Source of the DNA: Clostridia bacterium | GTDB lineage: Bacteria > Bacillota > Clostridia > Christensenellales > UBA1242 | Length of the DNA stretch: 64,000 nt | Assembly (NCBI GenBank): GCA_017541375.1 | Contig: JAFXZE010000007.1 | Coordinates: forward strand, 128,989 to 192,988 | Direction of reading: 5' to 3' | Program-made: the position numbers and the translations under genes | Shown here: positions 2,750 to 32,003 of the stretch, in pieces | Layout: each line of letters opens with the position of its first letter | Numbering within the stretch: the first letter of the stretch is position 1 | The notes under the pieces: generated by a model | Told to the model about the DNA's origin: nothing | The model's database searches: none | The model's input: the letters and a program-made list of their open reading frames with translations, nothing else

Positions 2750-2767
2750 GTGATTATTTTTTGTGGG

Positions 2768-2791
2768 TATATAGCAAAATTTTGCTATATA
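2768..2791. terminator. perfect 24-nt palindrome after sigG (probable terminator hairpin)
   Basis: tatatagcaaaa/ttttgctatata, a 12-bp stem with no unpaired loop as written. No clean T-run follows. Confidence 0.45.
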
Positions 2792-2868
2792 GTGTTTAAA
2801 TTTTGAAAAGTTGTGTTTTCCCCTATATATATGTTCAAAAATGAAGTATATATCATATATATAATATA

Positions 2869-3171
2869 ATGGAAATAAGTTTTAGTGAATTGAGAGAAAA
2901 GAGTGTAGTAAATCTTATAGATGGCAGACGGCTAGGGCATATCATCGATATAGTAATTGAACAATGTAGCGCAAAAATCTTGGGGGTGGTTGTTCCTGGA
3001 GTAAAAACTAATCTTTTTCGAACAAGGGAAGATATATTCATTCCATATAAGTGTATAGTAAAGATAGGACTTGATACTATACTAGTGGAACTAAATCCAA
3101 TGTCGAATTTATCAAAAAATAGTGTTAATCTTTTAGAAGAAAAAATCTCTCCTTCAGGAAAGATTAGTTAA
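2869..3171 (+). CDS. YlmC/YmxH family sporulation protein (PRC-barrel)
   Basis: 100 aa. EKSVVNLIDGRRLGHIIDIVIE...ILGVVVPG is typical of the YlmC/YmxH family. Confidence 0.8.
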   Translation: MEISFSELREKSVVNLIDGRRLGHIIDIVIEQCSAKILGVVVPGVKTNLFRTREDIFIPYKCIVKIGLDTILVELNPMSNLSKNSVNLLEEKISPSGKIS

Positions 3172-3174
3172 TAG

Positions 3175-3199
3175 AAAACATAGCTTGTGCTATGTTTTT
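3175..3199. terminator. bidirectional terminator hairpin between convergent genes
   Basis: aaaacatagc-ttgt-gctatgtttt. The A-run and T-run flanks are part of the stem ends. Confidence 0.55.
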
Positions 3200-3941
3200 A
3201 CTTTAGTAGTTTTTGTAAAGCATTTGCATTTAAGATTGTACTTGAAATAAACTTGCCCTTATAGAAATTTGCCCAATTATTCATAAAGCACGGTGCGTTT
3301 TTTGCCTTTTCTAAAGAGTCAATCTTAATAAAATTTAGTTTGATATTATTATTTTTCGCATAATCACTTAATTCATTTACTTCATATTCTACATAAGGGC
3401 ATTCGTTAGCATAGTATATCGTAAAATCTTTGCTGTCTATTTGCATAGAATGGGCATTTTTACTAAAATTGGGTGGAGAAGAGGTATTAAATTGCAGAGC
3501 GAGTAGCTCGTATTCACCAATTTGATCCACTATTTTAAACCCAAAATGCTCAAAAAACTTTTTTTCACCTAAAAAAGGTTTTTTCTTAGTAGTTACGACT
3601 GTGCAAATGCCATCCATTTTCTTATTTTTTGCATCATTTATGGCATATTCGAGCAATTCTCGTCCAATTCCTTTTCCCTTAAAACTTCCAGCAACCCATA
3701 AACAATAGATATACATATAGTTTTTCCCAATTACAGGTGCCCAAGCAGTTTCAATTGGTTCATATTCAATAAAGATTTTACCACGAGCATTTAGTTTTCT
3801 AAAGATATGACCATCTTTTAGTTTCGATTTAATCCACTCTTTCTTCTTATCAACACCCGCTTGATGCTTTGGGTCTCCAATAGCGCAACAAATATGCTCA
3901 CTGTCGATATTATCGTTATCTAAATTTATGTATTCATTCAT
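3198..3941 (-). CDS. GNAT family N-acetyltransferase with YoaP-like C-terminal domain
   Basis: 247 aa. HICCAIGD near the N-terminus. GNAT acetyl-CoA motif FKGKGIGRELLEYAI. Extra roughly 90-aa C-terminal domain, as in YoaP-type enzymes. Confidence 0.7.
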   Translation of the reverse strand: MNEYINLDNDNIDSEHICCAIGDPKHQAGVDKKKEWIKSKLKDGHIFRKLNARGKIFIEYEPIETAWAPVIGKNYMYIYCLWVAGSFKGKGIGRELLEYAINDAKNKKMDGICTVVTTKKKPFLGEKKFFEHFGFKIVDQIGEYELLALQFNTSSPPNFSKNAHSMQIDSKDFTIYYANECPYVEYEVNELSDYAKNNNIKLNFIKIDSLEKAKNAPCFMNNWANFYKGKFISSTILNANALQKLLK

Positions 3942-3943
3942 AA

Positions 3944-5707
3944 CTATTTAAACTCTCTTTTACAAAATATAATATAACTAATGAATACTGCGGCTAATAG
4001 GGTAATCGAGCTAGTAATTATGCTTACAGTAAACGAACTATTAGGGTACATCGGGGTAGCGAACAATGATGCAAAGTTTGTAACTCCATTTCCTATAGAA
4101 GCTCCTCCGTAATAGTTAAATAAATCAATTCCAGCAAAAGGCATATAAGCACAAATATAAGAATTAGCTAATAAGATAGGAGTAATAAATACAAAGAACA
4201 AAACTACCATAGAAACAATTATGGTTGCTACATTATTTCTAAAAATATTAGCAAAAGCAGCTGTCATTATGCTGTAGAAGAATATTTTTATCATCAAAAA
4301 TAGTATGTACACCAACATAAACAATGGAGGCGCTATTCTAAATCCTGCACTAGCATTAAATATAGCTAAAATAGGCGTAGAATCAAGCCCATAGACTATC
4401 CATCCTGTTACAAACAGTATTATAGCACACAACAGTAATAAGGCAATACACATTATCAGTGTGGCGATAATCTTTGCTGATAAAACTTTATGGCGAGCAA
4501 AAGGGCGGGTGAGTAACACTTTGAGTGTTCCATTTTGATTTTCTCCGGCAATTTGCCCTGCGATAGTGAGCATAGCTAGTAGAATTATCACGATGCTGCA
4601 CCCCTGTAATCCATAAAACATCAGGTCATAAGCATCTGCGGTTTGACCAGAACTTATAGTGAGATTGAAGGGAGTAGAAACGCTATTGGGGGTCAAATCC
4701 TTCTTTAGTAAATATCTATTTCTTGTGATTTGTTCTTTTAGTTGATAAACATAAACATCTTGATATCCCACATATTTTTGGGCAAAAGTATCATTCATAC
4801 CTTTTATATTTTCATATTTTATACTATCATTGACTAAGCTAACAAATTGATCAGATATGTATAGATAATTTGATAAATTCGTTTTAAATTCATCAATTGA
4901 TACTGACTCATTATCTTTGTCAAGATTGGCTTTTGTGATGATATCTTCTTGGGTAGCCTTAGAGTTAGTGTAGATAGTAGAAAGAGTTTCGATACTACTA
5001 TCAGAAAGTTTGATATCTTTGATGGTTGTAGTTGAAAATTCATATAGCTTTTCAAACATTTGGTCTTGCGATGCTACATTAGCTATTGAAATAAATGAAT
5101 CTAAAGAAGAAAGATCCTTGTTATCCGCACGAAAAACCGATATTGTTCGAGAAAGTAGAGCGGAAAAGTTGTTATAATCATTTACTTTTACAAACAGACG
5201 CAAATTATTAGTAGAAACCGATGCTTTTAGTTTGTCATTTACTGTTTTAAGATTATCGATAATTTGTAAACGATAATTATTAATAGAAGATATATCAGGA
5301 TTAGTTTTTGTTTTTTCAGTTTCAATTGCTTTTAAATATCCTGATTTATATAAATATTGCACTCCTATAGCTCCATTTGTCCCTGTATTATTACTTAATA
5401 ACGTGCTTATAGAGTTTACAATAGATTCTTGTTTAGACATTGTTTCAAGAGTGGTGTAAGCACCGTTCATATTTGAATCGGAGATATTTTTATTGAGGGT
5501 AGGGTGGTTACAAAAGTTTTCATAAATTGCATCTTTGCTGCTACCTTCAAGTTTTGAATAATAACTATCATCAATCCTATTTACAGGGTCAAATGTTATG
5601 CAAGAGAAAAATAGTACTACAGCGAGTAGAGCTGTTATTATATAAATAATTGGGCGCATTACAATTTTGTATAATTCGCCATTCACTAAACGACCAAATT
5701 TTAGCAT
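3944..5707 (-). CDS. ABC-2 type transporter permease with large extracytoplasmic domain
   Basis: 587 aa. One N-terminal TM, a roughly 330-aa Ser/Asn/Asp-rich soluble region, then about six C-terminal TM segments. Start overlaps the stop of the upstream ATPase gene by 1 nt. Confidence 0.65.
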   Translation of the reverse strand: MLKFGRLVNGELYKIVMRPIIYIITALLAVVLFFSCITFDPVNRIDDSYYSKLEGSSKDAIYENFCNHPTLNKNISDSNMNGAYTTLETMSKQESIVNSISTLLSNNTGTNGAIGVQYLYKSGYLKAIETEKTKTNPDISSINNYRLQIIDNLKTVNDKLKASVSTNNLRLFVKVNDYNNFSALLSRTISVFRADNKDLSSLDSFISIANVASQDQMFEKLYEFSTTTIKDIKLSDSSIETLSTIYTNSKATQEDIITKANLDKDNESVSIDEFKTNLSNYLYISDQFVSLVNDSIKYENIKGMNDTFAQKYVGYQDVYVYQLKEQITRNRYLLKKDLTPNSVSTPFNLTISSGQTADAYDLMFYGLQGCSIVIILLAMLTIAGQIAGENQNGTLKVLLTRPFARHKVLSAKIIATLIMCIALLLLCAIILFVTGWIVYGLDSTPILAIFNASAGFRIAPPLFMLVYILFLMIKIFFYSIMTAAFANIFRNNVATIIVSMVVLFFVFITPILLANSYICAYMPFAGIDLFNYYGGASIGNGVTNFASLFATPMYPNSSFTVSIITSSITLLAAVFISYIIFCKREFK

Positions 5708-19883: not shown

Positions 19884-22139
19884 ATGAGTAAAATACTAAG
19901 AATACTTTCACTTTTGGGTGTGCTATCTATATTTATGCTTATTAGCATGTGCATATTTGTTGTAATTTGCCTAATTAGCACTAGCTCAATTTCATTAGAT
20001 ATTGATAAATTAAATAGCATCACAACAAAGATGCATATATTAGATTCTGATGGAGAAAAAATTGCACAAACAAACAATCAAGGCTCCCGCAACATAGATT
20101 TAAGTGCTCTTCCAGCTTTCGTTCCACAAGCCTTCATTAGTACAGAGGACAAAACTTTTTACCAGCATAATGGTTTAAATTATCCAAGAATTATAAAGGC
20201 TAGCCTCAAAAACATGATTAGTGGCTCTTTAAAAGAAGGAGCCTCAACAATTACACAACAACTGATAAAAAACACTCATCTAAACAGTGAAAAAACACTA
20301 AAACGCAAAGTTATCGAGGCTATTTTAGCAATTAAGCTAGAAAAGAAGTATTCTAAAAATGAAATTTTAAACACATATTTAAACGCCATCTACTTTGGAG
20401 CAAATGCCTATGGAATAGAAAATGCTTCATGGAAATATTTCAACCATTCAGCCACACAGCTTTCCATAGCAGAAAGTGCATTATTAGCCGGTATTATAAA
20501 ATCCCCTAAAACATATTCACCTATAACTAATCAAAATAACAGTTTATCAAGGCGTAATTTTGTCCTAAAAGAGATGTTAAATCAGCATGCTATCTCAAAA
20601 GCTGAATACAATCAAGCGATCAATACTCCGATACAACTTAATCTTTCATCTTCTCAAAATGATGAATTATATTCGTTAGTTATAGATGAAGCTATGGAAA
20701 AACTAAACTATAGTGAAAAAGATATTTCCACCATGGGATTGAAAATTTACACTTATTTTGATAGTAATATGCAAAAAGCTATTGATAAATTGATTTTAGA
20801 CGAACAAATAGAGCATTCTTTTGTAATATTTGATAATAAAACAAACGGAATAGTTGCCTTAAAAGGCAATATAAAAGCCAATCACCAGGCAGGCAGTACG
20901 ATAAAACCTCTACTATGCTATGCTCCAGCTTTTGAAAAAGGAATACTTTCCCCCGCAAGTCCTATTTTAGATGAGAAAACAACTTTTAGCGAATATTCCC
21001 CTCACAATGTAGGCGATAAGTATTATGGTTGGGTTAGTGCTAGATTTGCGTTGAAAAACTCTCTAAATATTCCAGCAATCAAAGCTCTAAATTATGCCCA
21101 AATTGATTATTGCATAGATTTTGCAACCAAATTAGGGTTAAAATTCACTCCTAACGACAATCATTTAGCCCTAGCACTAGGTGCAAGCGAATATGGGCAG
21201 AGTTTACTTGATATAACAAATGCTTATGCCTGTTTTTCTCGATTAGGAGAGTATGATTCACCACATTTTATCAAAAGAATTGAGTCTAACACCGGAAAGA
21301 TTTTATTTAGCGGTTCTCCTCAATTTAAGCAAATATTTAGTGATGCAACGGCATTTTTAATTAATGACATCCTTCAAGATGCGGTGGATAGTGGAACTGC
21401 TAAAAAATTGAGTAGTTTGGATATGAAACTATGCGCAAAAACTGGTACTGTTGGAAGTAGCAATAATAAAACAAATACAGATGCATGGTGTATATCATAT
21501 AACCCCCAATTCACTCTAGGCGTTTGGTGCGGTAATGCTTCTCAAATTTCTGAGCATAACCTCTCCCCTACTCAAAATGGCGGTACAATTGCAGCTACCC
21601 TTAGTTATTTAGTTTGGGATAAACTAAATAATGAATCTACTTTTATTCAAGAATATTCCCCTCCAAGTAGTGTAAAACTTGTAAATCTAGATGCCATATC
21701 AAAGCAAAATCAGAAATTGGAACAAGCATCAGAAAATACTCCGCCAATGTATATTGAAACTGATTATTTTAATAAAAACTATATTCCTAAAACAATAAGC
21801 GATAGATTTATTATTCCACCTACTACAGAACTAAAAACTACTATTAATGAAGACTCTATAGAATTTTATTGGGAAGGATTGGAGTATTTAAATTATGAAT
21901 TATGGTACAAAAATGATAGGTATAGCTACAAAATTTGTTCACTTACCGGCAAAAATAAAACACTATCTTACATATTTATGCAACCATCTACAACTACTGA
22001 ATTTTGGCTTATAGCCAAATTTAATATAGATAATTCTCCTGAAAGTAAAAGTAACTCAATTACTTGGAAAGCGGAATCAAGTAAAAAACTAAATAAAAAA
22101 ATTCTACACAATTGGTTAAAAAAGAGCTTAGAAATTTGA
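19884..22139 (+). CDS. class A penicillin-binding protein (glycosyltransferase/transpeptidase)
   Basis: N-terminal TM. GT51 motifs EDKTFYQHNG and GASTITQQL. Transpeptidase motifs STIKP (SxxK), SLN (SxN) and KTGT. Confidence 0.9.
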   Translation: MSKILRILSLLGVLSIFMLISMCIFVVICLISTSSISLDIDKLNSITTKMHILDSDGEKIAQTNNQGSRNIDLSALPAFVPQAFISTEDKTFYQHNGLNYPRIIKASLKNMISGSLKEGASTITQQLIKNTHLNSEKTLKRKVIEAILAIKLEKKYSKNEILNTYLNAIYFGANAYGIENASWKYFNHSATQLSIAESALLAGIIKSPKTYSPITNQNNSLSRRNFVLKEMLNQHAISKAEYNQAINTPIQLNLSSSQNDELYSLVIDEAMEKLNYSEKDISTMGLKIYTYFDSNMQKAIDKLILDEQIEHSFVIFDNKTNGIVALKGNIKANHQAGSTIKPLLCYAPAFEKGILSPASPILDEKTTFSEYSPHNVGDKYYGWVSARFALKNSLNIPAIKALNYAQIDYCIDFATKLGLKFTPNDNHLALALGASEYGQSLLDITNAYACFSRLGEYDSPHFIKRIESNTGKILFSGSPQFKQIFSDATAFLINDILQDAVDSGTAKKLSSLDMKLCAKTGTVGSSNNKTNTDAWCISYNPQFTLGVWCGNASQISEHNLSPTQNGGTIAATLSYLVWDKLNNESTFIQEYSPPSSVKLVNLDAISKQNQKLEQASENTPPMYIETDYFNKNYIPKTISDRFIIPPTTELKTTINEDSIEFYWEGLEYLNYELWYKNDRYSYKICSLTGKNKTLSYIFMQPSTTTEFWLIAKFNIDNSPESKSNSITWKAESSKKLNKKILHNWLKKSLEI

Positions 22140-23285
22140 AATAGTAACTATCTCTTCTGATTCTAAACTCTTTTTTATTAATGTTTCTATATCCAATTTT
22201 TCTTCTTCACGAAGTACTTTTTCAATTTTAGGTTTCGTTACAGGGCTTTTGGGTAAAAACACTGTACAGCAGTCCTCATAAGGCATAATACTTGTTTCAT
22301 AAGTATCAATTTTTTGAGCAATAGCTATAATTTCTTCTTTATCAAATCCAATCAACGGTCTAAATACAGGAATATTTACCACAGAATTGGTTATCCCTAT
22401 GCTTTGTAAAGTTTGACTAGCTACTTGTCCTAAGCTTTCACCCGTTATAAGAGCTCCACAGTCGTTGTTTTGAGCAATAATTTGTGAAATACGCATCATC
22501 ATACGCCTAAGTAAAGTAATCATAAAGTCGCCATCACATTTTTTGTGTATTTCTTCTTGAATATGAGTTACAGAAACGATATGAAGCTTGATTGTATTTG
22601 TGTATGCACATAGTTTTTTGGCTAGCATTTCCACTTTATTGCGAGCCAATTCGCTAGTATAGGGATAGCTATGAAAATGTATAGCCTCAATTGTTAAACC
22701 ACGCTTAGCAAGAAAATATGTAGCTACAGGACTATCAATTCCACCACTTAGTAATACCAAACCTTTCCCCGCGCTTCCTAAAGGCATTCCACCTACGCAT
22801 TTTATATAAGAAGTGGAAATGTATGTATATCCATTTTCTCTTATATCGACATTCACATCCACCTCTGGAGTAGTTAAATTCACCTTAGAATTAGGATTAT
22901 TCTTTCCTATTATATCACCTAAGATAATATTCAATTGCATAGATTTTATAGGAAATATTTTACTTGCCCTGTTTGTACTCACTCTAAATGACTTATTATT
23001 TAGTTTTATCGATTCACAAAAAGAGCAAATATTTTCTTTGCTCGTTTCTATTCTTTCCGCCACAGATAAGGAGTAAATACCAAAAACTTTGGTCAATCTA
23101 TTTACTATTGCTTGCTCCTGTTCTTGATCATAATCGCTTATTTCTAGTCTTCCGCTTATGGTGTGTAGTTTGTGTTTAAGTCCTGTAAGAGTATAAACAA
23201 TATTATCCTTAAGTTTTTTCTCAAAGGAACCTCTATTTTTACCTTTTAAAAATATTTCATCATATCTAATTAAAATTACATTCAT
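22128..23285 (-). CDS. thiI: tRNA 4-thiouridine synthase ThiI
   Basis: 385 aa. THUMP-like N-terminal region. PP-loop LLSGGIDSPVA. Confidence 0.9.
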   Translation of the reverse strand: MNVILIRYDEIFLKGKNRGSFEKKLKDNIVYTLTGLKHKLHTISGRLEISDYDQEQEQAIVNRLTKVFGIYSLSVAERIETSKENICSFCESIKLNNKSFRVSTNRASKIFPIKSMQLNIILGDIIGKNNPNSKVNLTTPEVDVNVDIRENGYTYISTSYIKCVGGMPLGSAGKGLVLLSGGIDSPVATYFLAKRGLTIEAIHFHSYPYTSELARNKVEMLAKKLCAYTNTIKLHIVSVTHIQEEIHKKCDGDFMITLLRRMMMRISQIIAQNNDCGALITGESLGQVASQTLQSIGITNSVVNIPVFRPLIGFDKEEIIAIAQKIDTYETSIMPYEDCCTVFLPKSPVTKPKIEKVLREEEKLDIETLIKKSLESEEIVTISNF

Positions 23286-23288
23286 ATT

Positions 23289-24413
23289 TTATCCTATCAA
23301 AGTTGAAATTTCTTTTTTTACTGCATTTACAAAGTCAATTACTTCACTTTCTGTATTAAACTCACTAAAACTAACTCGAATATTTCCAAGGAGAAGTTCA
23401 CTAGCCAATTTCATCTCATTAAGAACACGATTGCCAATTTTTTTTGAACTGCAAGCACTTCCTGTGGAAATGCAAATATCATATTTTTCTAAACTATGCA
23501 AAAGAACTTCTCCTCTTATCATGGGGAAAGAGATACTTACTATATTAGATAGAGCTAAATCAGAGCTATTTAACACAAATTTTAACCCACTTTCATCCAA
23601 CAAAGTTAGCAATTTTTTCTTTAATCCATCGATATGCTTGCGTTTTTTATCAAAATCAGCATACATCAATTCACTAGCTAAAACAAAACCTAATATCCCT
23701 GCGGGATTTTCAGTACCAGAGCGCAATCCATTTTCTTGGCCGCCACCAAATATAATAGGTTTTAGATTAATTCCTGACTTTACATATAGCGCCGCCACAC
23801 CTTTTGGACCATGAATTTTGTGAGCACTCATTGTGTACATATCTACTTGCCAATCTAGTAGATTTTCTTTTATTTTCCCCCAAGCTTGCACCCCATCAGA
23901 ATGAAAAATACAGCTTTTATTAATTGATTTAACAACTTTACCTATTTGTTTTAGATCATTTATTGCACCAGTTTCGTTGCTTACATGAATAACCGACACT
24001 ACCCCTACCTCAGCGCTCATTTTAGCTTTTAAATCCTCTATGGATAGCGTACCATCTTTATTTATATCTATAAAATCAACCTCAAAACCTGAATTAACTA
24101 GATTTTTCGCAGTTTCAAATACTGAGGGATGTTCTCCTTTTGATATGAGAATCTTCTTATTTTTTCTACTAGATCCTATCAATGCTAGATTATTAGCTTC
24201 TGTAGCACTTCCCGTAAAGATTATATTGTCATTTTGGTTGCCTTGCAAGAGTTTAATCATTCGTTGCTTACCATCCAATATATCATTCTTTACTTTTACT
24301 GCATAGCCATAAACACTAGAGGGGTTAAAAAAGTGATTTATGCTATATTCATGTATGAAGTCAGCAACTTCTGGCCTAATTTTTGTGGTTGCGGAATTGT
24401 CAAAATAAATCAT
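23289..24413 (-). CDS. cysteine desulfurase (NifS/IscS/NifZ-like), ThiI partner
   Basis: 374 aa. PLP lysine in SAHKIHGPKG. Active-site loop SSGSACSS-like (STGSACSSK). Directly upstream of thiI. Confidence 0.85.
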   Translation of the reverse strand: MIYFDNSATTKIRPEVADFIHEYSINHFFNPSSVYGYAVKVKNDILDGKQRMIKLLQGNQNDNIIFTGSATEANNLALIGSSRKNKKILISKGEHPSVFETAKNLVNSGFEVDFIDINKDGTLSIEDLKAKMSAEVGVVSVIHVSNETGAINDLKQIGKVVKSINKSCIFHSDGVQAWGKIKENLLDWQVDMYTMSAHKIHGPKGVAALYVKSGINLKPIIFGGGQENGLRSGTENPAGILGFVLASELMYADFDKKRKHIDGLKKKLLTLLDESGLKFVLNSSDLALSNIVSISFPMIRGEVLLHSLEKYDICISTGSACSSKKIGNRVLNEMKLASELLLGNIRVSFSEFNTESEVIDFVNAVKKEISTLIG

Positions 24414-24424
24414 TCTTCCGCCTC

Positions 24425-26797
24425 CTAGCCTCGAAGTTTAGCATCAAACTTTGCTGTGAGTTGACGAACAATATTATCAAAAGTAATGTTTACTTCATCT
24501 TGAGTCATAGTTACATCAGGCTTTCTAAAAGTTAGTTTAAATGCCACATTTTTCTTACCTTTATCGATCTCATTTCCGATATAAACATCAAATAATTCAG
24601 CATTTTCTAACCATTCTCCACCAGCACGATTAATAACATTGACTAATTCCCCTACAGCTACATTTTCATTAACCAACACTGCTAAATCCCTCATAGAAGC
24701 TGGATGTTTAGGAATCGGCTTTATTTTTTTTGATTTTTTAAGAGGTAAAACGCTCAAATTTAATTCAAAATAATAACAATCAGTATTTATATCAAAGTTT
24801 TTGAGTACTTGTGGATGAATTTTACCAATTAATCCAATCGTTTTATTAGCCCATTTTAAGCTTGCAGTCATGTTTGGATGCATAAATGATAAATTAATAG
24901 GCTCATAGTTTAGAGTTATTCCAAGATTATTGGCTACTATTTCTAGTGTTGATTTTACATCAAAAAATGTAACTTTCTGCGTAGTAATGTAACTTAGCAT
25001 ATTTTGCTCTATAAATAGATTTTTGTCATTACGTTTGTTGACAAACACTTTACCAACTTCAAACAACTGAAAATCTTTATTTTGCCTATTTAAGTTAAAT
25101 CTCACTACATCTAACACACTACCAAGCATTTCTGTGCGCATTATGCTATAGTCTTTACTTAAAGGATTGGCTATAGTGATTACATTACGCAATTCACTTT
25201 CTTTTTCTATAAGTAGTTTATCAAGCTCCGTTGGTGAGCGGAAAGTGTATGTACGAATCTGATGAGCGCCTAGTGCTAACATGCTACGAGTTGCAATATT
25301 TTCTTTGTTTTGCTCTCCATCAACTCCACCAATAGTCGCTGATACTCCTTCACATTTTTGAGGTTGAATTTTATCAAAGCCGTAAAATCTAATTATTTCC
25401 TCAATCAAATCCACATCACGCTCAATATCAGCTCTGATAGCAGGTACTTCACAATTTATTACATTATTTTTCTTTGTCGCTTTTATACCTAAACTCTTTA
25501 GAGTATTTATAGCAAATTGAGCAGGAATCTCAATACCTAGATTATCTTTTATAGAGTCTAATGACACACAAATAGTTCTTGATTTTGTCTCTACCTCTCC
25601 ACAAATTACGATTGGCTCTATTTCGCCTAGCTGAAATTCTTCAATCAAATGAAGAGCTCTATTTAATCCTCTAAGCGCAGAAACGCTTTCTACTCCACGC
25701 TCAAAACGAGCACTAGCATCAGTACGCAATCCTATTGCTCTCGCGCTTCGCCTTATACTTACTCTATCAAATATCGCACTCTCTAACACTACCGTGTGAG
25801 TATTTGGATTGATTGAAAATTCTTTTCCTCCCATAATGCCAGCCAAGCCAATTACTTGCTTGTCATTTGTAATAACCACATCATCTTTACTTAGTGTATA
25901 AGTCTTGTCATCTAGCGCTATTAATTTTTCGCCTTCTTGCGCTTGTCTTACAAATATCTTTCCACCCAATTTTTCATAATCAAAAGCATGAAGTGGCTGT
26001 CCCATTTCCCACAAAATATAATTTGTTAGGTCAATAAAATTATTTTTGGGATTTATACCTATTGATTTGAGGCGTTTTTGAATAATAGCTGGCGAAGGCG
26101 CAATATTTACGTTTTTAATTACACAACCTAAATATACTCCACAATTTGGAGTATTTACATCAATATCAAGTTTTACTGCTGTTTTCTTAGCCTCAACAAA
26201 ATCGGTCTTGGGCTCGATAAACTCTCTTCCCAGTCCTGTAGCAAGTTCTCTAGCAAGTTCTACGACACTTTGGCAATCTGGTCTATTAGGCAGTACTTTT
26301 AGGTCAAAAATTACATCATTTAAACCTAAAAAATCCGCAATATCTTGCCCAACTACAGCACTCTCATCGAGTATCATGATTCCATCCACATCAGCTGTTG
26401 GATAAATCGCCTTAGTTACTCCTAGCTCTTCGCCTCCACAAAGCATACCTTGTGAAATTTCGCCACGCATAACAGTTTCTTTTATCACCGCACCATTTGG
26501 AAGATGTGCTCCATCAAGACTTGCGGGCACATAAGCTCCCTCAAATACATTTGTTGCAGCAGTGAGAATCTGAACCTGTTTTTCTCCTATATCTATAGTA
26601 CAAATTTGAAGTCGTTCAGCATTAGGATGACGAGTTAATTTCACAATTTTGCCCACTTTTACATGGTCTAGTCCCTTACTCATCTTCTTCATTTCTTCGA
26701 CTTCGTATCCGATTTCAATAAATTTATCTGCAATATCCTTTGTACTTAGCCCTGACAAATCTACAAAATCTTTCAACCAATTTAATGTAACAATCAT
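24425..26797 (-). CDS. pheT: phenylalanine--tRNA ligase beta subunit
   Basis: 790 aa. MIVTLNWLKDF start, tRNA-binding domain, B3/4, B5 and FDX-ACB C-terminal layout. Confidence 0.95.
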   Translation of the reverse strand: MIVTLNWLKDFVDLSGLSTKDIADKFIEIGYEVEEMKKMSKGLDHVKVGKIVKLTRHPNAERLQICTIDIGEKQVQILTAATNVFEGAYVPASLDGAHLPNGAVIKETVMRGEISQGMLCGGEELGVTKAIYPTADVDGIMILDESAVVGQDIADFLGLNDVIFDLKVLPNRPDCQSVVELARELATGLGREFIEPKTDFVEAKKTAVKLDIDVNTPNCGVYLGCVIKNVNIAPSPAIIQKRLKSIGINPKNNFIDLTNYILWEMGQPLHAFDYEKLGGKIFVRQAQEGEKLIALDDKTYTLSKDDVVITNDKQVIGLAGIMGGKEFSINPNTHTVVLESAIFDRVSIRRSARAIGLRTDASARFERGVESVSALRGLNRALHLIEEFQLGEIEPIVICGEVETKSRTICVSLDSIKDNLGIEIPAQFAINTLKSLGIKATKKNNVINCEVPAIRADIERDVDLIEEIIRFYGFDKIQPQKCEGVSATIGGVDGEQNKENIATRSMLALGAHQIRTYTFRSPTELDKLLIEKESELRNVITIANPLSKDYSIMRTEMLGSVLDVVRFNLNRQNKDFQLFEVGKVFVNKRNDKNLFIEQNMLSYITTQKVTFFDVKSTLEIVANNLGITLNYEPINLSFMHPNMTASLKWANKTIGLIGKIHPQVLKNFDINTDCYYFELNLSVLPLKKSKKIKPIPKHPASMRDLAVLVNENVAVGELVNVINRAGGEWLENAELFDVYIGNEIDKGKKNVAFKLTFRKPDVTMTQDEVNITFDNIVRQLTAKFDAKLRG

Positions 26798-26809: not shown

Positions 26810-27931
26810 TTATTTTTTGTTAATTTCCTCAACTATATCGGCATAATGCTCTTTTACCACAGCAGGCAATTGTTCTATATCTAATTTTTCATTGTCACCT
26901 TTTTTAACAATCAACAAATCCTTTATGGCTTGTTTTATTTTTTTATCATTTTTAGCATCTTTTGCGTATGGAACAATATCTACTTCACCCGCTTTTATTC
27001 TTTCCACAAAATAAGTAGCTAAATTTTCTATTTTTTCTACACCAATTACTTTTACTTCGTTTGGTGAAACAAATTCTTGACTAGCATTCTCAGATTGCAT
27101 AAATCCAGAATTTTCTACTTCATATACAAAGCATGATTTATTTTTTAATACATCCTTTGATGCATCTGTGTAATATTCCTCAAAATAAGGTTTTAGACCA
27201 TTTATAGTGTTTTCTAATCCCAAACTACCATAATATTTATTATCAGAAAAATACTCTAAAATACCTAATATAGGATTGTTAGTTGCACACACATATTCCC
27301 CTTCTCCACAATTTATAGGTTTAAATTCCTTAATGTCAGCATCAGTAGAAATGATGTAATACTTTTGACTTTTAAGCAACTCTTCACGCAAAACATTATA
27401 ATACTCCATCCAATGTGCCCTAACTTCATCAGGAAGCATATCTGGAGTCATATTTATGTAACCAAATCGCAATAATCTATCTCTTATATGAGCTCGAATC
27501 ATATCTTCATATGCTCGATTATTTTCATAAAAATGAATTTTTAATGCCCCAGCTCGATTAGCTTTACGAAGATATAAACTTAAGTCGTTTATTATTACTG
27601 TTTTAATAACTTTAGTTCGTTTTGTAGATACATATTCATACTTAAAACTTGTTTTCCCAGATTCAAAACCAGAGTCTTTCAACTCATACAAGGCACTCTT
27701 TTTGTGTTTAAAGCATTCAGTAAATGCGCCTTTATATAACTCATACATCTGAGGAATATCATTTTCATCCACATCCACGATAAAATTAAAATCATTCACT
27801 TCCCCGCCAAAATAAGCTGATAATACGGGGTTTGTAGTTGCATAAACCCATCTTTGTCCATGAGTACTTACTCTAGGCTCCAACATTTTTATTGTAGTAT
27901 TCTTTGATCCATGGTAAAATTTTTTCTCCAT
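26810..27931 (-). CDS. hypothetical protein with internally duplicated domain, embedded in the pheST operon
   Basis: 373 aa. GGAGG overlaps the pheS stop region, 10 nt gap after pheS and 12 nt gap before pheT. Two homologous halves: FYHGS..IKMLEP..WVYATTNPVL..LYELKDSGF..YEYVS versus YYIIS..IKEFKP..YVCATNNPIL..VYEVENSGF..QEFVS. Confidence 0.65.
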   Translation of the reverse strand: MEKKFYHGSKNTTIKMLEPRVSTHGQRWVYATTNPVLSAYFGGEVNDFNFIVDVDENDIPQMYELYKGAFTECFKHKKSALYELKDSGFESGKTSFKYEYVSTKRTKVIKTVIINDLSLYLRKANRAGALKIHFYENNRAYEDMIRAHIRDRLLRFGYINMTPDMLPDEVRAHWMEYYNVLREELLKSQKYYIISTDADIKEFKPINCGEGEYVCATNNPILGILEYFSDNKYYGSLGLENTINGLKPYFEEYYTDASKDVLKNKSCFVYEVENSGFMQSENASQEFVSPNEVKVIGVEKIENLATYFVERIKAGEVDIVPYAKDAKNDKKIKQAIKDLLIVKKGDNEKLDIEQLPAVVKEHYADIVEEINKK

Positions 27932-27941
27932 GATTTCCTCC

Positions 27942-28970
27942 TTATCTAAATTGCTTTAATAAATTTATGTCATTTTCATATAAATCACGCATATCACTAA
28001 TGCCATATTTCATCATTGTAAGTCGCTCCAATCCAAAACCAGCTGCAAAACCTCGATAAACCTTACTATCCACATTACAGTTTTCTAGCACTTTAGGATT
28101 TACCATTCCAGCCCCCAACATCTCTACGAATCCGGTGTCTTTACACATTGAACATCCACCACATTTTCCGCCACACTTAGGGCAGCTAGCGTCCACCTCT
28201 ATACTAGGTTCTGTAAAAGGGAAGAAACTTGGACGCACCCTAATCTTGGTTTTTTCTCCCAAAATGTGTTTGAGTATTCCTTCAATAGTTCCAATACAAT
28301 CTGCCATACTCACATTTTTATCTACAACCAATATCTCTAGTTGAGAAAACATTGGAGAATGAGTCGCATCAATCTCATCAATTCGATAAACATTTCCCAT
28401 AGAAATCATTCTTATAGGTGGAGTCTGTGTTTCCATAACTCGAATTTGCATTGAAGAAGTCTGTGTGCGCAACACTGTTTCCTTATCGATATAAAAAGTG
28501 TCTTGCATCTCTCGTGCTGGATGATCTTTGGGGATATTTAGTGCCTCAAAGCAGTAGTAGTCTGATTCTATATCATATCCCGTATGAAGCGAAAAACCTT
28601 GACTTACTAAATACTCAATCAATTCTTGCTTCATCTTTTCCACTGGATGCATTCCTCCCCAAAGGGTGGGTTTTACAGGAATAGTAACATCAACCTTTTC
28701 GTTAGCCAAAGCCTCATCCATTGCAGCCTTTTCAAATTGATTAAACTTATCTTCAAATAAAGCTGTCAGCTCTTGCTTTAACTCGTTTAATCCTTGCCCC
28801 ATGCTCTTCTTTTTTTCTGGAGGCAAATCTTTTAATTCCTTCATTTTTTCTAAAACCAAACCATTTTTTCCCAAGAACTTAGCATTTGCCTGTTGTAACT
28901 CTAGCTTGTTTTGTACTTTACTGAGCTGTTCTTTGGCTTTGGTCAAAATATCTTTTATATCCTTTTCCAT
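27942..28970 (-). CDS. pheS: phenylalanine--tRNA ligase alpha subunit
   Basis: 342 aa. Class II motifs, including HPAREMQDTFY and GFAAGFGLERL. Confidence 0.96.
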   Translation of the reverse strand: MEKDIKDILTKAKEQLSKVQNKLELQQANAKFLGKNGLVLEKMKELKDLPPEKKKSMGQGLNELKQELTALFEDKFNQFEKAAMDEALANEKVDVTIPVKPTLWGGMHPVEKMKQELIEYLVSQGFSLHTGYDIESDYYCFEALNIPKDHPAREMQDTFYIDKETVLRTQTSSMQIRVMETQTPPIRMISMGNVYRIDEIDATHSPMFSQLEILVVDKNVSMADCIGTIEGILKHILGEKTKIRVRPSFFPFTEPSIEVDASCPKCGGKCGGCSMCKDTGFVEMLGAGMVNPKVLENCNVDSKVYRGFAAGFGLERLTMMKYGISDMRDLYENDINLLKQFR

Positions 28971-28989: not shown

Positions 28990-29258
28990 TATATATAGAT
29001 GTTTTGAGAAAATAAAAATCTCCTCCCTTGCAATAGGACGAAGATTCTCCGTGGTACCACCTATCTTCTTACAAAAAAATTGTAAGCTCTTATAATGAGT
29101 ATAACGAACCCCAAACGCCTTTGCCTACTGCTATTATTTTCAGCAAAAGTGCTAAAAAGTGAATTCACTAACACCTTTTCCTAGGATATCTCACCGTCAT
29201 CCCTCTCTGTAAAGAAGTATGTTAGTTACTATTCTTTCTCACCGCATCTCTATTAAGT
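28990..29258 (-). promoter_or_regulatory. T-box leader (Phe specifier UUC) with terminator/antiterminator
   Basis: On the minus strand: AGAGA and AGTA elements, AGAGAG...GGTGA distal motifs, and specifier context GAA-UUC-A (plus 29161-29166). T-box AGGTGGTACCACGG at plus 29049-29062, overlapping the 5' arm of a terminator (AAUCUUCGUCC / GGGAGGAGAUU) followed by a U-run. Upstream promoter TAGACA-17-TATACT at 29266-29294. Confidence 0.8.
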
Positions 29259-29309
29259 TTGTCCTAGTATAACATAAAAAAAAATTTTTGTCTATAATTA
29301 AACAAAAAA

Positions 29310-30171: not shown

Positions 30172-31023
30172 TCACGATAACCAAATTTTCATCTTAAATT
30201 GTTTATCTTCCATTTTTCCTAATCCCAACAACTCTCCATTGCAGTAAGTTTTAAATAACTCTTCACTTTCAAGACTTAATTTTACTATTTTTCCCTGCCT
30301 CAAGTCTTGCGCAACCTGAGAAGAAATTTCTTTTTTTGCTAATTTTTCTAATACAATCTCACATGGTAATAAATTTTCTTGTGATATATCATCTAAATTA
30401 GATGCATTCTCAATAGAAAATACCCCCACACGCACTCGTTTTAGTGCTGTCATAGTAGCTCTTGTGCCTAATGCGTAAGCTAAATCTCTACAAAGTGAAC
30501 GAATATATGTACCACTGCCACAAACTATCTTAAATGTAAATACATTTTCAGCCTTTTGCTCTATTAATTCAAACTCTTGTATTGCTACTATACATGGCTT
30601 CATTTCCACCATCTTGCCACTTCTTGCTAAACTATATGCCCGCTTACCATTCACGCTTTTTGCGCTATACTGAGGCGGAATTTGACTTATTTTTCCCACA
30701 AATCGTGGTAAAACCTGCTTGATATCAGCTTTCGTTGGATATTTTTTTATTTCCTTTATCACTCTTCCTGAGCTATCAAGTGTATCGGTCTCATAGCCAA
30801 ATGTAAATTCAGCCACATATTCCTTAGTTTTTGATAGCATAAAGTCAAATAACTTAGTTGCTTTACCAATCGCTATAGGTAAAACTCCGCTAGCAAGAGG
30901 ATCTAACGTGCCAGTATGACCAACTTTTGTAGTTTTATCCAAAGCTAACTGTTTTTTTACTTTTGCTACCACTTGAGCACTTGTAAGCCCAATAGGTTTA
31001 TCCACGTTAATAAAACCTATCAT
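30172..31023 (-). CDS. truB: tRNA pseudouridine(55) synthase TruB
   Basis: GHTGTLDPLASGVLPI catalytic Asp motif. 283 aa. Start overlaps the stop of the upstream gene. Confidence 0.93.
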   Translation of the reverse strand: MIGFINVDKPIGLTSAQVVAKVKKQLALDKTTKVGHTGTLDPLASGVLPIAIGKATKLFDFMLSKTKEYVAEFTFGYETDTLDSSGRVIKEIKKYPTKADIKQVLPRFVGKISQIPPQYSAKSVNGKRAYSLARSGKMVEMKPCIVAIQEFELIEQKAENVFTFKIVCGSGTYIRSLCRDLAYALGTRATMTALKRVRVGVFSIENASNLDDISQENLLPCEIVLEKLAKKEISSQVAQDLRQGKIVKLSLESEELFKTYCNGELLGLGKMEDKQFKMKIWLS

Positions 31024-32003
31024 TTTGTTATCCCCAATATCTTTTCAGTCTGCTTTATTACTGCATTAATTGACTTTTCTAGATCTCCTTGAAGCGTGAG
31101 GCCACTAGCTCTCATATGGCCTCCCCCTTTAAAGTGAGCAGCAATTTCACTCACATCCACGCCATCTACCATAGTACGCAATGAAATGTGATACACCTTT
31201 GGTTCGGGTTCAAACACATTTATAACAACTTTTACACCTTCCACACTCTGAAGGTAAGAAACAATATATCTACTGCCACTGTAGGGCACTTTCGTTTCTT
31301 GATAATCACTATATCTTAGTACTGATAATGCAATTTGTCCATCATCAAAAAACTGCACACTATTGATTGCTCTTTTATTTATTTCAAAAGCATTTGGCTT
31401 TGTTTTAGCAAAACAATCTCTCACAATTTCATCCGCTTTAATGTCATATTTTACTAGTTTTGCTAATATTTCAAATGTAGTAAATTTTGTATTTGAGTAA
31501 ATGAAACCACCAGTATCTGAGTAAATTCCTATATAAAATATCTTAGCAAGCTTATTATTTAGTTTAAAATATGGTTCAAATGTTCTAAAAATAACCTCAC
31601 AAGCACTCGATTCACCAACCCAAATTTGATTAAATTTTGCCCATAAATCTTTATCTTCGTATTTATGATGGTCTATGACAAACGAATTGGATACATTATC
31701 AGCAATTTTAACTACTTCCTTAGGCATTCGATTTTTTTCTGATATATCCACCCCAATCAACACATCTGGGGTGAGTACTTCTGTTTTGTAATTAAACTCT
31801 CTTATAAAATCATAAAAATATTCATCTAGCTCTTTTTCTAATAACACATCAGACTTAATACCATTTTGGCGCAAAATTTCTTGCATAGCAAGACTTGAGC
31901 AAATGCTATCATAATCGGGGTTATTATGACCGGAAATAGCCACGCTTTTTACGTGGCTACAAATATCCAATAGTTTTTGAGCAAAATCTTTTCTCTTATT
32001 CAT
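31020..32003 (-). CDS. nrnA: DHH/DHHA1 phosphoesterase (NrnA-like nanoRNase/pAp phosphatase)
   Basis: GHNNPDYDS, DHH in VIDHHKY, DHHA1 GGGH in FKGGGHMRASG. Sits between rbfA and truB. Confidence 0.8.
   Translation of the reverse strand: MNKRKDFAQKLLDICSHVKSVAISGHNNPDYDSICSSLAMQEILRQNGIKSDVLLEKELDEYFYDFIREFNYKTEVLTPDVLIGVDISEKNRMPKEVVKIADNVSNSFVIDHHKYEDKDLWAKFNQIWVGESSACEVIFRTFEPYFKLNNKLAKIFYIGIYSDTGGFIYSNTKFTTFEILAKLVKYDIKADEIVRDCFAKTKPNAFEINKRAINSVQFFDDGQIALSVLRYSDYQETKVPYSGSRYIVSYLQSVEGVKVVINVFEPEPKVYHISLRTMVDGVDVSEIAAHFKGGGHMRASGLTLQGDLEKSINAVIKQTEKILGITK

Follow-up and report, generated by a model that had tools for sequence, protein, structure and literature searches.

A tandem-domain protein of predicted Arr-like fold encoded between pheS and pheT behind a phenylalanine-specific T-box in a Clostridia genome

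Results

Organisation of the pheS-X-pheT operon

We analysed a 64,000-nt stretch of a Clostridia bacterium genome (GenBank assembly GCA_017541375.1, contig JAFXZE010000007.1, positions 128,989 to 192,988), hereafter the window, in which an open reading frame (ORF) termed X lies between pheS and pheT, the genes for the two subunits of phenylalanyl-tRNA synthetase (PheRS). Coordinates are those of the window. The features of the locus are as follows.

29266-29294, minus strand: promoter-like site immediately 5' of the T-box leader (TAGACA-17 nt-TATACT, TG-extended)
29031-29251, minus strand: T-box leader with a UUC (Phe) specifier (Rfam RF00230)
29006-29049, minus strand: T-box terminator, a hairpin (29014-29049) at the expected place plus a U-rich tract
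27942-28970, minus strand: pheS, PheRS alpha subunit, 342 aa (Pfam Phe_tRNA-synt_N and tRNA-synt_2d)
26810-27931, minus strand: X, 373 aa, between pheS and pheT
27371-27931, minus strand: X copy 1, aa 1-187, made up of a core (aa 1-135) and a helical tail; an intact DUF6886-like domain, predicted Arr-like
26810-27370, minus strand: X copy 2, aa 188-373 plus stop, a degenerate copy of the same domain
24425-26797, minus strand: pheT, PheRS beta subunit, 790 aa (tRNA_bind, B3_4, B5, tRNA_synthFbeta, FDX-ACB)
23289-24413, minus strand: iscS/nifS-like cysteine desulfurase, a distal gene of the operon
22128-23285, minus strand: thiI, the last gene of the operon

X is an integral cistron of this operon, which runs from the promoter and T-box (UUC) through pheS, X, pheT and iscS to thiI, with successive intergenic gaps of 10, 12, 11 and 3 nt. 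The 3' end of thiI is convergent with a penicillin-binding protein gene (19884-22139, plus strand). The pheS-X junction reads TAA-GGAGGAAATC-ATG (10 nt) and the X-pheT junction TAA-AGGGAAGGAAAA-ATG (12 nt); Shine-Dalgarno sequences are kept at both, so that every cistron has its own ribosome-binding site. The exact X protein was present on 12 metagenome contigs, and the order pheS-X-pheT was found in all six places displayed (6/6), drawn from six different samples; the locus is therefore not an assembly artefact.

The T-box leader matched RF00230 over its full length (model positions 1-219/219; score 137.3 bits, gathering threshold 93, E = 2e-31), and its specifier loop reads GAA-UUC-A, a Phe codon followed by a purine. 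The promoter-like site upstream, identified from its match to the consensus alone (10/12), was the best minus-strand site of the region. The terminator stem-loop (GAGAAUCUUC.GUCC...GGGA.GGAGAUUUUU, then AUUUUCUC) shares sequence with the 3' half of the T-box, as competition between terminator and antiterminator predicts. Its folding z-score was only -1.4, making its position, rather than its energy, the diagnostic feature. Between pheS and pheT, minus-strand promoter-like matches reached only 9/12, none of them credible, and a scan for terminator-like sites found none; the region held fewer promoter-like matches (15) than shuffled sequence (24 ± 5). Since neither an internal promoter nor an internal terminator was found, the straightforward reading is that X is co-transcribed under the Phe T-box. 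T-box operons give a direct read-out of tRNA charging. From the anatomy of the leader, expression of X would depend on stabilisation of the antiterminator by uncharged tRNA-Phe, and the level of X would therefore rise together with that of PheRS when Phe charging falls.

An earlier note on this DNA, made by reading the letters, had described a 373-aa ORF wedged between pheS and pheT with gaps of 10 and 12 nt and with no promoter or terminator on either side, and our coordinates, junctions and scans agree. It had also placed a UUC T-box at 28990-29258; the T-box and its specifier stand, but the Rfam span is narrower, that interval also including the terminator hairpin and U-tract.

Family membership and internal duplication of X

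The two halves of X are copies of one domain. A BLASTP comparison of aa 1-187 with aa 188-373 aligned aa 3-176 with aa 189-365 (52/186 identical, 28%; E = 1e-14), essentially the whole of both halves, and a residual trace at the DNA level was found as a 27-nt repeat (74% identical) at a spacing of 555 nt, or 185 codons. The duplication put forward in the earlier note (aa 3-135 versus 190-325) is thus real and extends further than proposed, and all four pairs of motif blocks on which it was based align between the halves. The duplicated fold was likewise seen in a full-length AlphaFold model, where strands and helices follow in the same order in both halves.

The only Pfam family matched by X was DUF6886 (PF21820), with a score of 28.5 bits for the full-length protein (cut-off 27). 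This alignment covers only aa 261-309 of X and 49/164 profile positions. Searched alone, the halves scored 15.8 and 16.8 bits, below the cut-off, both at profile positions 82-132, and the DUF6886 profile matched 24/71 relatives of X (E < 10). X probably falls in a distant sister group, not in the core family. No match for X was found in NCBIfam or PADLOC, the best match in PHROGs had E = 0.32, and phmmer against PDB sequences returned nothing significant. A word-indexed search of 5.8 billion proteins recovered three clusters only, one of them X itself, whilst an exhaustive profile search recovered 429 representative clusters (E ≤ 1e-3), nearly all of them single-domain proteins of ~185-190 aa. 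No relative carried a functional name: a homologue search with the family profile gave 18 proteins, all 'hypothetical protein', a look-up of the clusters gave no names, and DUF6886 was not mentioned in the literature searched. Several apparent relatives were rejected as chance matches, namely NleE (E = 0.016), MGMT chains (E = 1.7) and the CpcN phycobilisome linker, whose E of 9e-4 was summed over several individually insignificant stretches.

Across the alignment of 71 relatives, H7, E64 and Y82 were invariant and S9, H24, V29, Y30, A31, F89 and E99 were at least 90% conserved (H7 100%, Y30 99%, S9 97%, E99 96%). Copy 1 of X retains all ten of these residues (10/10). Copy 2 carries H7->I, H24->E and Y30->C and retains the other 7/10; in line with the earlier note, copy 1 is of the active type and copy 2 lacks the His, and a second His and the Tyr have also gone from copy 2. 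The copies also differ in isoelectric point (pI), copy 1 being basic (8.95) and copy 2 acidic (4.82). The N-terminus (MEKKFYHGS) has no signal peptide, and X is a cytoplasmic two-domain protein composed of an intact followed by a degenerate DUF6886-like domain.

The same pattern was observed in X1 and X2, two paralogues from a sister lineage (described below). Copy 1 of both keeps 10/10 conserved residues, and copy 2 of X, X1 and X2 shows H7->I, H24->E and Y30->C/R/S in every case and retains S9, V29, A31, E64, Y82, F89 and E99. These common losses indicate that degeneration occurred once, before X1 and X2 split. An intact domain paired with a degenerate one was also found in two unrelated two-domain relatives, P0008 and P0011, of independent origin, which suggests that members of the family act as dimers and that fusion into a pseudo-heterodimer has happened repeatedly. 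Judging from the models and the residues lost, copy 2 is most likely a non-catalytic partner in a built-in pseudo-dimer.

The gene for P0008 (357 aa, with a degenerate second copy; contig L180, 1526-2599) lies downstream of an Rrf2 regulator and is convergent with a cysteinyl-tRNA synthetase gene (2765-4180), a second association with a synthetase that is possibly coincidental.

Predicted fold of the X domain

Copy 1 (aa 1-187) was modelled with AlphaFold 2 using the 71-sequence alignment, giving a predicted local distance difference test score of 97.5 and a predicted template modelling (TM) score of 0.90. When this model was compared with the PDB using Foldseek, the top match was the rifampin ADP-ribosyltransferase Arr (2hw2; probability 0.99, E = 1.9e-3), with PARP16 at rank 4 (probability 0.47) and KptA at rank 9 (probability 0.14). 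An earlier, poorer model of full-length X had three Arr entries as its top three PDB matches, such that Arr heads the list for two independent AlphaFold 2 models (probability 0.96-0.99). Structure matches in BFVD were to uncharacterised phage and giant-virus proteins.

The layout of the model resembles that of ADP-ribosyltransferases (ARTs) of the H-Y-E type. Strands at aa 5-9 and 27-32 precede a helix at aa 35-41, and H7, within YHGS, lies on the first strand and Y30 on the second, before the helix. E99, at the start of a strand (aa 100-102), is only a candidate for the catalytic Glu; Arr uses an Asp, placed elsewhere. From the predicted structure and their conservation, H7 (in YHGS), Y30 (in VYAT) and E99 are putative NAD-site residues. 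A permissive hhalign alignment with Arr was collinear over 115 columns, pairing YHGS with YHGT and VYAT with VYFS, each of the latter two together with its helix; central strands were paired as well, as were the helix and strand at the C-terminus, and aa 50-77 of X were left as an insert. The Arr-2 query sequence behind the Arr profiles was confirmed against PDB 9iba (E = 3e-103).

On the basis of structure prediction and this collinearity of motifs, the X domain probably adopts an ART-type, Arr-like fold. X did not match PF12120 (Arr-ms), which all true Arr homologues carry, and X is Arr-like in its predicted fold and is not an Arr family member. The earlier note had proposed an ART fold and likened it to PARP-like and DUF3990-like families; the fold class agrees with the nearest solved structures (Arr, PARP16 and KptA), but the nearest of these is Arr, not PARP or DUF3990.

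Occurrence, growth and constraint of X at pheST

We surveyed the pheS/pheT interval in relatives, as the earlier note had suggested. X-like sequence was found at 0/80 of the nearest PheS loci in GTDB species-representative genomes, bearing out the description of the arrangement as unusual, and peptide-pattern scans of the GTDB r232 species-representative set found no genome with X, the closest PheS being 65% identical. The ten closest PheS loci belong to uncultured Clostridia and Christensenella-like metagenome-assembled genomes (MAGs), in which PheS is 59-65% identical and pheT begins 12-81 nt after pheS. The lineage of the window itself is a low-GC (34.5%), Christensenellales-like gut or rumen group of Clostridia that is poorly represented among reference genomes.

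Three related metagenomic lineages hold one, two or four copies of the domain between pheS and pheT. The one-domain state is represented by P0004 (188 aa, pI 8.4; L176, 6001-6567, and L177, 688-1254), 51% identical to copy 1, in a fully syntenic locus with the order infB-rbfA-DHH-truB-AP endonuclease-T-box-pheS-P0004-pheT-iscS-thiI. The window has the two-domain state. The four-domain state occurs in the sister lineage, which carries two tandem two-domain genes, X1 and X2 (the latter being P0003), an arrangement that was rebuilt from contigs L181 (3135-4459), L182 (1-1353) and L001 (1-1238) through overlaps of 95-99% DNA identity. Relative to the window, PheS of the sister lineage is 90%, PheT 84%, X1 75% and X2 43% identical, the last two compared with X. 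The single-domain state is probably ancestral; either X2 was lost in the lineage of the window or X2 diverged very fast. The T-box and UUC specifier region is the same in L176, L181 and the window.

Constraint was compared between the window and the sister lineage using amino-acid identity and the proportion of non-synonymous differences (pN):

X copy 1 core: 94% identity, pN 0.040
PheS: 90% identity, pN 0.056
PheT: 84% identity, pN 0.101
X copy 2 core: 61% identity, pN 0.232

Judged by these substitutions, copy 1 is as constrained as PheS. Copy 2 evolves ~6x faster than copy 1 and is still constrained: synonymous sites are saturated, with a proportion of differences (pS) of ~0.70, against which even a pN of 0.232 lies well below the neutral rate.

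These data bear on whether X is a hitch-hiker, an accessory gene in a permissive site that is unrelated to Phe charging and kept because its excision would disturb pheT. Single-domain relatives are scattered and have no conserved neighbour, unrelated genes sporadically part pheS and pheT in other phyla, and the GC content of X (30.5%) is slightly below that of the neighbouring genes (35-37%) and of the window. We consider this explanation unlikely, however, in view of the low pN of copy 1, lower than that of PheS, the growth of the locus in place from one to two to four domains with no sign of decay, and the separate Shine-Dalgarno sequence at each junction. Insertion by a mobile element or prophage found no support: no flanking direct or inverted repeats beyond chance size were present, and tblastn of X gave no match among 72,556 plasmids and 50,697 genomes of phages.

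The genes that part pheS and pheT elsewhere are varied. A Desulfurobacteriaceae contig (L037, 5978-7946) has a 485-aa P-loop ATPase and a 176-aa ORF that resemble a defence or toxin-antitoxin-like pair, a Nitrospirae MAG (L056, 5948-8691) has scpA, a 223-aa ORF and purD, and a Gracilibacteria MAG (L084, 6042-6599) has a 186-aa lipoprotein-like ORF.

State of the PheRS subunits

PheRS was compared at columns at least 85% conserved elsewhere, of which there were 85 in PheS and 116 in PheT. In the X-carrying lineages 82/85 PheS and 109/116 PheT columns were unchanged, and the idea that X compensates for a degraded editing or catalytic site was rejected. Only PheS L225C and PheT A93S, V255I and S750N were common to all three lineages, changes that could reflect either shared ancestry or co-adaptation with X. 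The four columns concerned are 94-100% conserved in 48-72 other bacteria.

A non-catalytic role for X as a PheRS accessory subunit or regulator, its conserved residues serving in binding, would account for the slot between the subunit genes, which would give matched stoichiometry through co-translation, and for a copy 2 that is plainly non-catalytic yet constrained. We regard this as very unlikely: at least seven conserved polar or aromatic residues in a 135-aa core resemble an active site, the same residues are kept in ~430 relatives that are not linked to PheRS, and lineage-specific change in PheS and PheT amounts to only 4 substitutions in 201 conserved columns.

The wider family and a proposed function

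A pattern scan with a 9-sequence subset showed that single-domain relatives occur commonly in Lachnospiraceae, Oscillospiraceae and Christensenellales. No syntenic partner accompanies them; their surroundings show only that some functional classes are enriched. Among the immediate neighbours of 73 single-domain loci, GNATs were enriched (12/126), and other neighbours included Antibiotic_NAT (aminoglycoside N-acetyltransferase), MerR, GyrI-like and Cass2 regulators, MatE pumps and flavin mononucleotide reductases; no macro, NUDIX, aminoacyl-tRNA synthetase or tRNA genes occurred among them. Fusion proteins within the family (P0033, P0067, P0080, P0069 and P0113) included an X-domain joined to YjeF_N (P0033, E = 5e-39), a nicotinamide-nucleotide-repair domain, as well as X-domain plus GrpB, GNAT (Acetyltransf_3) plus X-domain and X-domain plus P-loop kinase-like combinations. 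Most members are acidic or neutral (median pI 6.1). Neighbours, fusions and median pI, together with Arr as nearest structure, point indirectly to small-molecule group transfer as the general activity of the family.

The place of X in the operon and its predicted fold suggest an uncharacterised enzyme activity coupled to tRNA-Phe charging. As a tentative proposal, which we hold to be possible rather than probable, X would be a group-transfer enzyme that depends on NAD and neutralises some small molecule by which PheRS or Phe charging is disturbed. The emphasis on a small molecule follows from the fusion partners, neighbour classes and median pI of the family and from Arr itself, whose substrate is a small molecule. 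Speculatively, X would act on a Phe analogue or a PheRS-directed inhibitor, with the T-box turning on detoxification at just the time that PheRS is starved or blocked.

Several results weigh against this proposal. The TM-scores of the Foldseek matches (0.33-0.42) are below the usual 0.5, and hhalign of the X family against Arr profiles of 2 and 24 sequences was not significant (probability 0.2% and 1.1%), the Arr profile having stayed shallow because every Arr homologue recovered was at least 69% identical. None of the ART Pfam families was matched, save ART-PolyVal in 1/71 members at E = 0.068. No context of PheRS-inhibitor biosynthesis or resistance was visible, nor a candidate substrate. 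The signal from gene neighbourhoods is weak in that it comes from paralogues outside the pheST clade, and co-transcription with pheST is deduced from sequence alone. Finally, the intact domains linked to pheST are basic (pI 8.4-9.0), which would fit an RNA or PheRS target.

Such a macromolecular target is the basis of a second explanation, in which the substrate that X modifies with NAD+ is tRNA-Phe or PheRS itself, so that Phe charging is adjusted or safeguarded. The reaction might be ADP-ribosylation, at an RNA end or on a protein side chain, or 2'-phosphotransfer of the KptA/Tpt1 kind. Besides the departure of the pheST-linked domains from the family median pI, this explanation draws on the strict location of the gene inside pheST in three lineages, the presence of the tRNA genes thiI, iscS and truB in the operon and its neighbourhood, and the occurrence of KptA among the fold matches. 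In addition, copy 1, being basic, and copy 2, being acidic, might together make up a face that binds RNA. However, the KptA match is weak, and the order of thiI, iscS and truB is the same in L176, which has the single-domain gene, and downstream of pheT in the sister lineage, so this synteny is not specific to X. Neighbours and fusions across the family indicate small-molecule enzymes and include no RNA-linked partners, and PheRS is canonical in the X-carrying lineages. We consider a macromolecular target rather unlikely on this balance.

A third explanation, that X is an enzyme of Phe supply or salvage that, for example, frees Phe from a conjugate, would have the Arr-like fold reused to bind a small molecule, without NAD chemistry. 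T-box regulons often contain genes for making or importing the cognate amino acid, GNAT and reductase neighbours fit the metabolism of amino-acid derivatives, and an ART signal is absent at the sequence level. Conversely, the H/Y/E pattern and YHG[ST] motif agree with the NAD-site residues of ARTs, the YjeF_N fusion suggests a link to nicotinamide nucleotides, and no hydrolase-like motif or fold match was found, making this explanation quite unlikely.

Other observations in the operon and its surroundings

Inside thiI (23023-23043) is a perfect 7-bp stem (GAGCAAA...TTTGCTC) followed by a T-run, which is terminator-like on both strands. This palindrome is probably due to chance, but could attenuate the distal operon. 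The DHH/DHHA1 (nrnA-like) gene, intact (327 aa) in the window (31020-32003) and on the remaining contigs, is split into ORFs of 256 aa and 74 aa on contig L010 (1930-2912), a strain-level frameshift or assembly error.

Discussion

Arr (PF12120; PDB 2hw2, 9iaf and 9iba) is the best solved-structure match to both models of X. Like the X domain it is a small, single-domain enzyme with YHG[ST], hVY[AF][ST] followed by a helix, a central hhYhh strand and a C-terminal helix and strand. The two share only ~12% identity, however, and no significant profile match. In addition, a hairpin and helix (aa 50-77), a 50-aa helical tail and further conserved residues (H24, E64, Y82 and E99) set X apart from Arr. 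X is also duplicated, and its gene belongs to a synthetase operon and not to a resistance cassette. KptA/Tpt1 and PARP16 are H-Y-E-type ART folds with a YHG[ST]-type first strand, and both fall within the top 9 PDB matches, albeit weakly (probability 0.14 for KptA and 0.47 for PARP16; TM ~0.2-0.3) and without sequence relation to X. KptA acts on tRNA and RNA, whereas X lacks its winged-helix RNA-binding lobe.

The tandem architecture recalls the binary toxins VIP2, iota toxin Ia and C2-I, in which two ART folds lie in tandem, one of them intact and one that has degenerated and now serves as partner or adaptor. In X, too, an intact and a degenerate copy, of predicted ART type, occupy one chain. 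The toxins are secreted, of the R-S-E type, have their active copy at the C-terminus and need a B component, whereas X is cytoplasmic and H-Y-E-like, has its active-type copy at the N-terminus and lies outside any toxin context; no B-component gene is present in the X operon, and X does not group with the binary toxins.

The operon itself resembles other T-box synthetase operons in having a canonical T-box, with specifier and terminator, upstream of pheS. Such operons normally hold synthetase genes alone, or biosynthesis and transport genes, and to our knowledge no T-box operon has an ART-like enzyme between the PheRS subunit genes. In the literature searched, an Arr-like tandem-domain gene between pheS and pheT was not described, the one match to the pheS/pheT interval being a cloning detail. 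Taken singly, fold class, DUF family and T-box control are known; what is new is a predicted Arr-like tandem enzyme fixed and expanding within pheST.

T-box control and the slot within pheST imply an activity that is wanted exactly when Phe charging fails. It is possible, though doubtful at present, that X and its one- and four-domain relatives form a class of synthetase-coupled, T-box-induced, NAD-dependent transferases that modify tRNA-Phe, PheRS or a PheRS-directed toxic metabolite. Such a class would constitute a charging-responsive layer of protection or quality control that is undescribed for any aminoacyl-tRNA synthetase. If the Arr-like fold reflects NAD-dependent transfer, X would be the first enzyme of the ADP-ribosyltransferase type with a functional tie to an aminoacyl-tRNA synthetase. 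The pheST locus offers a clean natural series from a single-domain enzyme to an intact/degenerate pseudo-dimer. If the reading is true, it would give a handle on ~430 uncharacterised protein clusters of gut Clostridia, and might reveal a previously unrecognised natural PheRS antagonist or a new modification of tRNA or PheRS in the gut and rumen.

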